From Escherichia coli (lineage in GTDB: Bacteria > Pseudomonadota > Gammaproteobacteria > Enterobacterales > Enterobacteriaceae): 4,709 bases of DNA. The stretch lies in assembly GCF_003334785.1 (NCBI RefSeq), contig NZ_QOWV01000045.1. One strand, written 5' to 3'. Positions 821-4,709 of this stretch are shown piece after piece. The notes below the pieces were generated by a model. The model saw only the letters and a list, made by a program, of their open reading frames with translations. It ran no database searches and had not been told where the DNA came from. A program made the position numbers and the translations under genes. Position 1 is the stretch's first letter; the number at the start of each line of letters is the position of its first letter.

Positions 821-904
821 CTGATCGTTTAAGGAATTTTGTGGCTGGCCACGCCATAAGGTGGCAGGGAACTGGTTCTGATGTGGATTTACAGGAGCCA
901 GAAA

Positions 905-996
905 AGTGAAAACCCCGATAATCTTCTTCAACTTTGGCGAGTGCGAAAAGATTACCGGGGCTAACAAGAAACCGTATAGCCAACAATTCAGCTATG
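905..996 (-). ncRNA. copA: CopA antisense RNA (about 90 nt), complementary to the repA mRNA leader (CopT)
   Basis: On the minus strand there is a small 5' hairpin (972..979 pairing with 991..998). It is followed by a long imperfect stem-loop (913..925 pairing with 948..960, 12 bp with one mismatch, 22-nt loop). A U-rich tail then follows (plus-strand 901..912 GAAAAGTGAAAA reads UUUUCACUUUUC on the minus strand), making an intrinsic terminator. A sigma70-like promoter sits just upstream on the minus strand. The ends are approximate. Confidence 0.6.
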
Positions 997-2300: not shown

Positions 2301-2819
2301 TGCACCTCCCACCGCAAGCGGCGGGCCCCAACCGGAGCCACTTTAGTTACAACACACAAAGACAACCTCCAGAAAAACCCCGGTCCCGCGCAGAACTGAA
2401 ACCACAAAGCCCCTCCTCATAACTGAAAAGCGAGGCCGCCCCCGCCCGAAGGGCGGGAACAACATCGCTTTTAATTATGAATGTTGTAACTACATTGTCA
2501 TCGCTGCCAGTCTTCTAGCTGGAAGTCCTCAGTACACGCTCGTAAGCGGCCCTGACGGCCCGCTAACGCGGAGATACGCCCCGACTGCGGGTAAACCCTT
2601 GTCGGGACCACTCCGACCGCGCACAGAAGCTTTCTCATGACTGAAAGCGGGTATAGTCTGGCAGGGCTGGGGATGGGTAAGGTGAAATCTATCAGTCAGT
2701 ACCGGCTTACGCCGGGCTTCGGCGGTTTTACTCCGGTATCATATGAAACAACGGAGTGCCGCCTTCCATGCCGCTGGCGCGGCATCAGGATAACTGAAGA
2801 GTGACAGTACACATCAACA

Positions 2820-2890
2820 TCAAACAGACTTGTTAAGCAGTCTTTCAGGGTGTAAGGTGAAGACCTGTTAAACAGTCTCAGAGGTGTGTT
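2820..2890 (+). promoter_or_regulatory. Candidate promoter/operator of the toxin-antitoxin operon with three iterated 9-mers
   Basis: Three copies of AA(A/G)CAG(A/T)CT at 2822..2830, 2835..2843 and 2870..2878, in the 70 bp upstream of the antitoxin ATG, with GAGG (2881..2884) as ribosome-binding site. Iterated sites overlapping the promoter are typical of autoregulated toxin-antitoxin operons. The promoter hexamers were not confidently placed. Confidence 0.35.
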
Positions 2891-3142
2891 ATGCCCAGTA
2901 TCATTTTGTCTGACACCAGTGCAAGCGTCAGTGAACTGAAAAAAAATCCAATGGCGACAGTCAGTGCCGGAGAGGGTTATCCTGTTGCCATTCTTAACCG
3001 GAATCAGCCTGCATTCTACTGTGTTCCTGCTGAATTGTATGAAAGGATGCTTGATGCTATGGATGACCAGGAGCTGGTGAAACTGGTTACTGAACGCAGC
3101 AATCAGCCACTACATGATGTGGACCTGGACAGTTATTTATGA
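2891..3142 (+). CDS. Type II antitoxin, Phd/YefM/StbD-like (83 aa)
   Basis: ORF MPSIILSDTSASVSELKKNPMATVSAGEGYPVAILNRNQPAFYCVPAELYERM... has the N-terminal pattern of Phd/YefM-fold antitoxins and an acidic C-terminal tail. Its stop overlaps the toxin start in ATGA (3139..3142), the classic toxin-antitoxin coupling. Confidence 0.8.
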   Translation: MPSIILSDTSASVSELKKNPMATVSAGEGYPVAILNRNQPAFYCVPAELYERMLDAMDDQELVKLVTERSNQPLHDVDLDSYL

Positions 3143-3426
3143 CTTATACGGTTAAATTCAGGGATGATGCCCTCAGGGAATGGCTGAAACTGGATAAATC
3201 CGTTCAACAACAGTTCGCAAAAAAACTAAAAAAATGCAGCGAAAATCCTCATATACCTTCAGCAAAACTACGTGGATTAAAAGATTGCTACAAAATAAAA
3301 CTTCGTGCATCAGGTTTTCGTCTGGTCTATCAGGTGATTGATGACATGTTAATTATTGCGGTTGTCGCAGTAGGTAAACGTGAACGTAGTCATGTTTACA
3401 ATCTCGCCAGCGAGAGAATGAGATAG
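3139..3426 (+). CDS. relE: RelE/ParE-superfamily toxin (RelE/StbE-like mRNA interferase, 95 aa)
   Basis: ORF MTYTVKFRDDALREWLKLDKSVQQQFAKKL...KLRGLKDCYKIKLRASGFRLVYQVID...VGKRERSHVY is closely similar, from memory, to E. coli RelE (KLRGMPDCYKIKLRSSGYRLVYQVID...VGKRERSEVY). Same length as RelE and 4-bp overlap with the antitoxin gene. Confidence 0.85.
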   Translation: MTYTVKFRDDALREWLKLDKSVQQQFAKKLKKCSENPHIPSAKLRGLKDCYKIKLRASGFRLVYQVIDDMLIIAVVAVGKRERSHVYNLASERMR

Positions 3427-3435
3427 GGGGTGTTA

Positions 3436-3981
3436 ATGCTTTTAAGTTTTAGTGAGTTAGATGTTCTTATTTATCAGGGGAAGGTTGGGGGTTTATTTCG
3501 TGAAAGAAAAAACGAAAGGATTGCTACAGACATTGATTCCAGAAACAAGTCATCATCAAGCAGTCATGAATATGATTCAGTTTTATCATTTCTATTTATT
3601 TGTGATAATGGAAAAGAAATAAATGTGAATTTAACAAATTGGAATATTAACATATTTCCAGGTCAAGAGATTGTCATTTATTTTGTGGAAAACTCAAAGA
3701 AAAACAAAAAAATACCATACATGATAAAAAACAAAAGCACATCGGAAGTGACTAATAATGTTCAAGAAATGTATAAAGAGTTTTTTTATACATCATACTT
3801 CAAACTGATAATACCTTTCCTTTTAATCATTTCTTACTTTATGTCATCCATATCTGTGGCTATCATGTCATTCGTTTTATATGTCATAATCAGAAGAAGA
3901 ATAGGAAAAGATTTCTTTTCAGAAATAAAAAGGAAAAGGTTAAAAAAAGAAGATATCATGGGGTTAGAGCACGTAATATAG
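3436..3981 (+). CDS. Hypothetical small membrane-anchored protein (181 aa from ATG 3436), AT-rich orphan gene of unknown function
   Basis: Uninterrupted 181-183 codon frame in DNA of roughly 25-30% G+C (by eye), where stop codons should be frequent. GGGGG (3425..3429) lies 6 nt before ATG 3436; GTG 3430 is an alternative start. The product has a polar N-terminal region with a Ser run, one long hydrophobic segment FKLIIPFLLIISYFMSSISVAIMSFVLYVII, then a basic tail RRRIGK...KRKRLKK. I recognise no family. Confidence 0.7.
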   Translation: MLLSFSELDVLIYQGKVGGLFRERKNERIATDIDSRNKSSSSSHEYDSVLSFLFICDNGKEINVNLTNWNINIFPGQEIVIYFVENSKKNKKIPYMIKNKSTSEVTNNVQEMYKEFFYTSYFKLIIPFLLIISYFMSSISVAIMSFVLYVIIRRRIGKDFFSEIKRKRLKKEDIMGLEHVI

Positions 3982-4028
3982 GGGCGACAGGTCCTTATAA
4001 GGGACCGTCCAGGGACCGGAGTTCCATT

Positions 4029-4070
4029 GCTACGCCGGAACCGCCGAAATTTCCGGCGTAGCTCTCTCTT
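4029..4070 (+). terminator. Candidate intrinsic terminator after the AT-rich gene
   Basis: Perfect 12-bp inverted repeat GCTACGCCGGAA (4029..4040) / TTCCGGCGTAGC (4051..4062) with a 10-nt loop, followed by the pyrimidine/T-rich tract TCTCTCTT. A second hairpin, GGTCC-TTATAAG-GGACC, lies at 3990..4006. The U-tract is weak, so the terminator function is tentative. Confidence 0.35.
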
Positions 4071-4126: not shown

Positions 4127-4507
4127 GGCTCCGTTTGGGAAACGGACAATATTGTACGGTTGCGTTATCGCGGTAGGGTGTACTCCCGCGCTATACGGTG
4201 TTTTCAGGATAATTGGTCTTAATCGGATAACCTAAATGCGATACAGCAAGAGCGACAACTTAAAAGCGATTAAACCTGCCGCCGCCAGAACGGTACAGTC
4301 CCTGACACAGGCACCACTGGTATAATCCAGTAAAGAGCATATGGAGAACTTATCATGTCGTCACGCAACTCTATACATGATTTTATAATGCTGCTCCCGG
4401 CGCTGCTGTTTGTTGGTAAGCGTACAGCCTGAACCGTCTGGTCAGAATCTGACGAATTAGACAAAGTGGTGTCCACCAAATAAGTAGTGGGAACCAAAGT
4501 GTCAGAT

Positions 4508-4636
4508 ATGCAGAAAAATGTGACTCCCGGCAGGCGAAAAGGCTGCCCTAATTATCCTCCCGAATTTAAACAGCAGCTCGTTGCTGCCTCCTGTGAACCC
4601 GGGATATCCATCTCAAAACTTGCTCTTGAAAAGTAA
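4508..4636 (+). pseudogene. Short OrfA-like fragment of an IS3-family transposase (42 codons then stop)
   Basis: ATG 4508 translates to MQKNVTPGRRKGCPNYPPEFKQQLVAASCEPGISISKLALEK and stops. The (Y/F)xxEFK...V...SIS..A pattern is the N-terminal HTH lead-in of IS3-family OrfA proteins, which are normally about 100 aa. A TGAACCG motif 78 bp upstream (4430) resembles an IS3-type end. Weak evidence. Confidence 0.3.
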
Positions 4637-4709
4637 CCGGCTCATTTAAACCGTCTGGTCTGTTTCCTCCGGCTCTACAAAAATAATGTCCATCATTTTT
4701 AATGGACAC

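Follow-up and report, generated by a model that had tools for sequence, protein, structure and literature searches.

Genetic setting of the toxin-antitoxin cassette

The window, by which we mean the whole stretch of 4,709 nucleotides of Escherichia coli DNA analysed here (contig NZ_QOWV01000045.1), comprises an IncF-type replication region and, after it, a toxin-antitoxin (TA) cassette. An identical stretch is present on the E. coli plasmid pWP7-S17-ESBL-04_2. The following genes and RNA define its layout.

527-787: copB-like gene
904-995, minus strand: CopA antisense RNA of an IncFII-type replicon (Rfam RF00042, 101.7 bits; the sole Rfam match)
1068-1937: IncFII-family repA
2891-3142, plus strand: antitoxin gene of the RelB-P307/StbD type, 83 aa, its N-terminal domain Phd/YefM-like and its C-terminal tail RelB-like
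3139-3426, plus strand: toxin gene RelE, 95 aa, sharing 4 nt (ATGA) with the end of the antitoxin gene
3436-3981, plus strand: ORF of 181 aa, starting 9 nt after the relE stop

The toxin belongs to the RelE/StbE family. It scores 34.6 bits against TIGR02385 (RelE_StbE), above the cut-off of 27.9, aligns over residues 1-93 with the solved E. coli RelE in the PDB (E = 1.7e-29), and matches Pfam ParE_toxin at 1.5e-14. The antitoxin falls within the Phd/YefM family through a weak match to Pfam PF02604 (PhdYeFM_antitox; E = 3.7e-5, residues 10-65), and its match to the NCBIfam YafN-like model (E = 4e-10) lies below the cut-off of that model. Database entries name the antitoxin "antitoxin StbD" or Phd/YefM family and the toxin "RelE/StbE replicon stabilization toxin". 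Each exact protein occurs on at least 1000 public contigs, and identity to the Shigella sonnei pINV type amounts to 79/83 residues for the antitoxin and 90/95 for the toxin.

Sequence and profile searches of the PDB with the antitoxin returned weak matches to DnaT and to the RelB tail only, and no close solved relative. Residues 54-81 show weak similarity to the tail by which K-12 RelB binds RelE (profile E = 0.29-0.83; BLASTP E = 0.047). An AlphaFold2 model built on a 15-sequence alignment reached a mean pLDDT of 53.7, with residues 1-29 below 50, which does not allow a meaningful fold search; in this low-confidence model, the secondary-structure elements follow an order compatible with the Phd/YefM beta-alpha-alpha-beta-beta-alpha fold. 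By its profile matches, the antitoxin looks chimeric, combining an N-terminus of Phd/YefM, YafN and DnaT-profile character with a RelB-like tail. Such a tail fits a partner that is a close RelE homologue.

Downstream of the toxin gene, the 181-aa ORF is very AT-rich (GC content 0.29; window 0.47), and its C-terminal part includes a hydrophobic stretch. Pfam, NCBIfam and PADLOC return no match for it, and PADLOC likewise assigns neither TA protein to a defence system. The ORF is found in 90 plasmid records only, all at least 90% identical. In both records whose coordinates were checked, it directly follows this TA variant, and it may therefore belong to the operon as a third gene. Beyond it, at 3985-4065, lie two strong hairpins, for which Rfam returned no match: GGTCCttataaGGGACC, and a second with a perfect 12-bp stem, GCTACGCCGGAA...TTCCGGCGTAGC.

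Similar IS66-type terminal-repeat-like sequences stand in direct orientation at 4418-4445 and 4634-4661 (GTAAGCGTACAGCCTGAACCGTCTGGTC and GTAACCGGCTCATTTAAACCGTCTGGTC), with a truncated IS3-family orfA fragment (4487-4636) between them. In the identical plasmid, IS66 tnpA starts at about 4686 in window numbering, and a Hok/Gef-family gene is annotated upstream of the replicon, at about 131-241 on the plus strand.

Repeat structure and predicted promoter

Directly upstream of the antitoxin gene, a sequence-only reading of this DNA had described three iterated 9-mers forming part of a duplicated 15-mer, and had taken them for sites of autoregulation by antitoxin or TA complex. All of the quoted strings are present: the 9-mers are AAACAGACT at 2822-2830, AAGCAGTCT at 2835-2843 and AAACAGTCT at 2870-2878, and the 15-mers lie at 2829-2843 and 2864-2878. 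Three matches to AARCAGWCT lie in the window, where 0.24 are expected; 1 of 200 shuffles reached that count. The duplication itself stands, but a repeat finder gives its length as 18 nt, not 15. The unit spans 2826-2843 and 2861-2878, with starts 35 bp apart and 16 of 18 positions identical (89%). Both 18-mers are imperfect palindromes of the form AGACnnnTTAAnnnGTCT, and the symmetric, self-complementary pattern AGACNNNTTAANNNGTCT matches the window at these two places only (0.00 expected from shuffles). The features of this region are as follows.

2822-2830, plus strand: first 9-mer of the earlier reading, made up of 4 nt of A-rich flank and the left arm (AGACT) of site 1
2826-2843, strandless: putative operator site 1, 18-bp imperfect palindrome AGACTTGTTAAGCAGTCT, overlapping the -35; equivalent to the putative relO2 of P307
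2830-2835, plus strand: predicted -35, TTGTTA, inside site 1 and 17 bp from the -10; assigned by positional homology to P307
2853-2858, plus strand: predicted -10, TAAGGT, between the sites; weak (3/6 to consensus), at the same position as the P307 -10
2861-2878, strandless: putative operator site 2, 18-bp imperfect palindrome AGACCTGTTAAACAGTCT, 2 nt past the -10
2881-2884, plus strand: Shine-Dalgarno sequence GAGG, 6 nt before the antitoxin ATG

The A/T wobble of the 9-mer arises because AGACT (2826-2830) and AGTCT (2839-2843) are the reverse-complement arms of one palindrome. What had been taken for three iterated direct sites is a pair of inverted-repeat units, the first 9-mer being an arm of site 1. 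The argument for cooperative binding from spacings of 13 and 35 bp falls with it, since the 13 bp are an arm-to-arm distance inside site 1 and do not separate two sites. Two sites would imply at least two antitoxin dimers. An iteron-like array of three or more direct copies was also considered; the region holds two conserved units, each an inverted repeat.

Within the window, the dyad symmetry of the sites is modest, at 7/9 symmetric pairs in site 1 and 6/9 in site 2. This level is unexceptional by itself: the window holds fifteen 18-mers with 7/9, where shuffles predict 6.5. As symmetry within the window alone is not compelling, the palindromic nature of the sites rests on their conservation in the family.

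The repeats occupy the promoter of a StbDE/RelBE-type antitoxin-toxin operon, a point on which the sequence-only reading is borne out by the profile, PDB and database-name matches of the two proteins. The dyad-symmetric sites overlap the predicted core promoter elements, as in operators of type II TA systems, and site 2, the equivalent of the putative relO1 of P307, covers the expected transcription start. A consensus promoter scan of positions 2400-3600 found no plus-strand promoter, and we ascribe this to the weakness of the -10 in the window. The -35/-10 assignment therefore rests on homologues and on the annotation printed in a preprint (bioRxiv 10.1101/2020.08.10.243006). Most homologues carry (T/C)TGTTA 16-17 bp upstream of the -10. 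TAnnnT is conserved at the -10 position, ending 1-2 nt before site 2, and reads TATAAT in four loci (L013-L016). The Shine-Dalgarno sequence is conserved in homologues as AGG or GAGG.

Conservation and distribution of the palindrome pair

A BLAST search with the cassette against 72,556 plasmids returned 1719 records covering a wide range of identity. For comparison of the upstream region, 14 further plasmid loci were picked by coding-region homology alone. These represent eight genera (Escherichia, Shigella, Enterobacter, Klebsiella, Pantoea, Serratia, Edwardsiella and Erwinia), have antitoxin identities of 73-97%, and make up a set of 15 loci together with the window. Both palindromes are present upstream of the antitoxin in 15 of 15. 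Their start-to-start spacing is 35 bp in 11 loci, the window included, 34 bp in two and 33 bp in two. No third site occurs in the set, in which the third-best match to the site consensus carries at least 7/18 mismatches. When the 12 distinct sequences of the set are aligned on the sites, site 1 averages 1.55 bits of information and site 2 1.47 bits; the left flank, spacer and right flank average 0.49, 0.68 and 0.71 bits. Conservation of the sites goes beyond neutral drift, and they are inherited together with the antitoxin.

The family consensus of the operator palindrome is AGACYTGTTAACAGGTCT. All four half-sites share the consensus AGACYTGTT, so that the family consensus is a perfect palindrome, AGACCTGTTAACAGGTCT, which Serratia plasmids carry exactly. 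Perfect 9/9 palindromes are found in L013, L015 and L027, and in L013 the symmetry extends over 30 bp. In L014 and L016, of the Edwardsiella/Erwinia lineage, the inner GTTAA core is altered in both sites together, which fits one protein reading both. Substitutions in the antitoxin N-terminus (e.g., N3S), set against the variant half-sites of the window, gave no clear pattern.

The homologous loci sit in unrelated contexts, following genes for a Y-family polymerase, DotA/TraY, pqiB or a dehydrogenase. Similarity to the cassette often begins at window positions 2822-2826, that is, at the left edge of site 1. In StbD clades with 50-54% antitoxin identity, a different palindrome, AGCACYTTTAA...TTAARGTGCT, is found at the same place, from which it follows that the operator changes with the antitoxin. 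The StbDE loci of IncI2, IncX1 and IncHI1B plasmids (L021-L023) show a single long palindrome about 60-25 nt upstream of the antitoxin, lying over the -35 and -10, and this difference speaks for operator turnover within the family.

A separate group of Klebsiella and E. coli plasmids (L017-L019) carries, at 401-652 of these loci, antitoxin homologues 62-67% identical to that of the window, after a Y-family DNA polymerase gene. These three loci have no RelE gene downstream and no palindrome pair, and two GACTTG motifs remain upstream; the antitoxin may there be orphan or repurposed.

The specificity of the site pair was addressed by a scan of one genome per species, across 100,044 species, with the pattern AGACNNGTTANNNNGTC, 18-20 nt, then ACNNNTTAANNNGTC. 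It matched at 39 places, 37 of them in Enterobacterales. At 36 of the 39, the pair adjoins a homologue of this antitoxin, which starts a few to about 20 nt away and is usually followed by a RelE homologue; one further locus ends before the antitoxin-gene position. The remaining two, on contigs of Prevotella metagenome-assembled genomes, have no antitoxin homologue beside the site pair and are probably chance matches, about 1.6 of which are estimated for 20 specified bases. Since these loci were chosen by the pattern, the scan is evidence of its specificity for the gene pair and not of its conservation.

Several other accounts of the conserved blocks have to be weighed against these data. Cooperative binding to three direct-repeat sites at 2822, 2835 and 2870, spaced by 13 and 35 bp, would draw on the threefold occurrence of the degenerate 9-mer where 0.24 are expected. 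Its A/T wobble, however, is the signature of an inverted repeat (AGACT/AGTCT), and the 5' part of the first copy is not conserved. The AAAC of 2822-2830 corresponds to flanks of AATAA, AAAAA or AAAGC in the homologues, and the AGAC is invariant or nearly so. With a third site missing from all 15 loci, this account appears very improbable. We give equally little credence to the proposal that the blocks serve purely as parts of the promoter, as -35, discriminator and initial transcribed region, and are kept for RNA polymerase. The -35 lies inside site 1 and could itself account for part of the conservation there, and site 2 sits at the expected +1. Yet the most conserved bases are the symmetric outer GAC/GTC triplets, outside the -35 hexamer, and the 18-bp consensus recurs downstream of the -10, where RNA polymerase needs no such sequence. 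The actual -10, moreover, is far less conserved than the sites.

Recognition by another factor, either a host nucleoid protein or an IncF replication or partition protein, is suggested by the adjoining IncF replication region. Against it, the similarity shared with thousands of IncF backbones does not extend past about 2786, the sites go with the TA genes onto IncI1-type, Pantoea and chromosomal contigs without an IncF replicon, and the operator sequence follows the antitoxin clade; we hold such a factor to be highly unlikely. A role of site 2 as a 5'-UTR hairpin controlling translation or stability of the antitoxin mRNA is more remote still. Site 2, probably part of the transcript, can pair into a hairpin of 4 bp, but this fold is weak (-3.5 kcal/mol; z = +0.64), and an equal or better fold is seen in 154 of 200 shuffles. 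Site 1, which has the same sequence, lies upstream of the expected transcription start, and Rfam has no match at site 2.

Putative autoregulation and relation to known systems

Taken on sequence comparison, it is very likely that the repeats are two autoregulatory operators of a plasmid type II TA operon of the relBE-P307/StbDE kind. The autoregulatory site proposed by the sequence-only reading thus keeps its place as the best candidate operator by position, symmetry, footprinting across the loci, association with the antitoxin and the P307 annotation, but not its three-site layout. One antitoxin dimer would bind each palindrome through the Phd/YefM-like N-terminal domain and, once bound, would keep RNA polymerase off the promoter. 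RelE would be held by the RelB-like tail of the antitoxin and act as a co-repressor that strengthens repression. Degradation of the labile antitoxin would open the promoter, and the antitoxin would be replenished. Binding, repression and the role of the toxin are inferred here from knowledge of the family; a review describes type II TA operons, relBE included, as autoregulated by the antitoxin at the operator-promoter.

The spacing of 33-35 bp is strictly kept and corresponds to about 3.3 helical turns, which puts the two palindromes on different faces of the helix. With this off-phase spacing and a chimeric-looking antitoxin, repression might need a higher-order complex, in which antitoxin dimers seated on both operators and bridged by toxin would wrap or loop the DNA at the -10. 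We regard this as unlikely. Promoter geometry alone, with the -35 in site 1 and site 2 past the -10, explains the spacing equally well. A wrapped or looped geometry, if true, would be unlike the adjacent-site cooperativity of YefM-YoeB and K-12 RelBE.

The present comparison gives the precise boundaries and the consensus of the putative operators, two 18-bp palindromes 33-35 bp apart, for a TA module present on over a thousand plasmids of enterobacteria, and it corrects the reading as three direct repeats. Its importance beyond annotation is small. The consensus could aid the design of reporter or plasmid-curing constructs and the automatic annotation of such loci.

The closest known system is relBE of the E. 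coli plasmid P307 (Gronlund and Gerdes 1999, J Mol Biol 285:1401; accession M26308). Identity to the P307-type locus L008 is 76/83 (92%) for the antitoxin and 81/95 (85%) for the toxin, which places the window in the same clade. Both loci have genes of 83 and 95 aa, the stop of the first overlapping the start of the second, beside an IncF replicon of RepFIC/FII type, and both show the order of a -35 TTGTTA within the upstream palindrome, a -10 and a second palindrome. They differ in the right half-sites (AAGCAGTCT and AAACAGTCT in the window, AACAGGTCA and AAACAGTCT in P307), in the -10 (TAAGGT against TATCTT) and in the extra AT-rich 181-aa ORF after the toxin, which the window variant has, unlike P307. 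Gronlund and Gerdes are said to have reported autoregulation of P307 relBE in 1999.

The region analysed here is the putative operator-promoter of a well-known plasmid addiction module, already annotated as such in P307. In the supplement of bioRxiv 10.1101/2020.08.10.243006, a 2020 preprint, the relBE promoter of P307 (M26308) is shown with -35 TTGTTA and -10 TATCTT, the -35 being covered by a "putative relO2" and the -10 followed by a "putative relO1". Allowing for machine reading, the printed promoter equals the region upstream of L008, and the positions of relO2 and relO1 are those of sites 1 and 2. The two sites were thus on record as putative operators before the present analysis. That preprint assumed K-12-style conditional cooperativity for relBE. 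Among the papers searched, none defines this operator experimentally, and a StbDE paper in NAR (2025) deals with the distant IncI2 clade.

Comparison with operator layouts of other StbDE/RelBE loci, which the sequence-only reading had put forward as a check, gave the same two-palindrome layout for relBE of P307, whereas StbDE of IncI2, IncX1 and IncHI1B plasmids differs. The StbDE systems (Morganella plasmid R485; IncI2/IncX1/IncHI1B) share the pairing of a Phd/YefM-like antitoxin with a RelE/StbE toxin. The IncI2/IncX1/IncHI1B members also share a palindromic element over the promoter; in them, antitoxin identity is 50-54%, and one long palindrome spans the -35 to the -10 in place of the AGAC...GTCT pair.

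The yefM-yoeB and axe-txe systems likewise combine an antitoxin of the Phd/YefM-type family with two palindromes overlapping the promoter. In these systems, the antitoxin is the main repressor on paired palindromes and the toxin enhances repression (PMC3920265). Their palindromes are built on a TGTACA core, with 12 bp between centres, whereas those of the window type are 18 bp long, have a GTTAAC-like core with outer GAC/GTC, and lie 35 bp apart, flanking the -10.

With relBE of K-12, the window shares a close RelE homologue and an antitoxin C-terminus weakly like the K-12 RelB tail, and RelE of K-12 acts as a co-repressor (PMC2812701). K-12 RelB, however, binds DNA via a ribbon-helix-helix domain, on a relO operator of adjacent hexad repeats with conditional cooperativity, whereas the antitoxin of the window has a Phd/YefM/YafN-like N-terminus; profile searches found no ribbon-helix-helix domain in it, matching Phd/YefM, YafN and DnaT, and RelB weakly at residues 54-81. 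Because the DNA-binding domain is not ribbon-helix-helix, the geometry of K-12 relO is not transferable, and the regulation of this "RelBE" should not be modelled on K-12 relO, as the DNA-binding domain of its antitoxin is of a different family.
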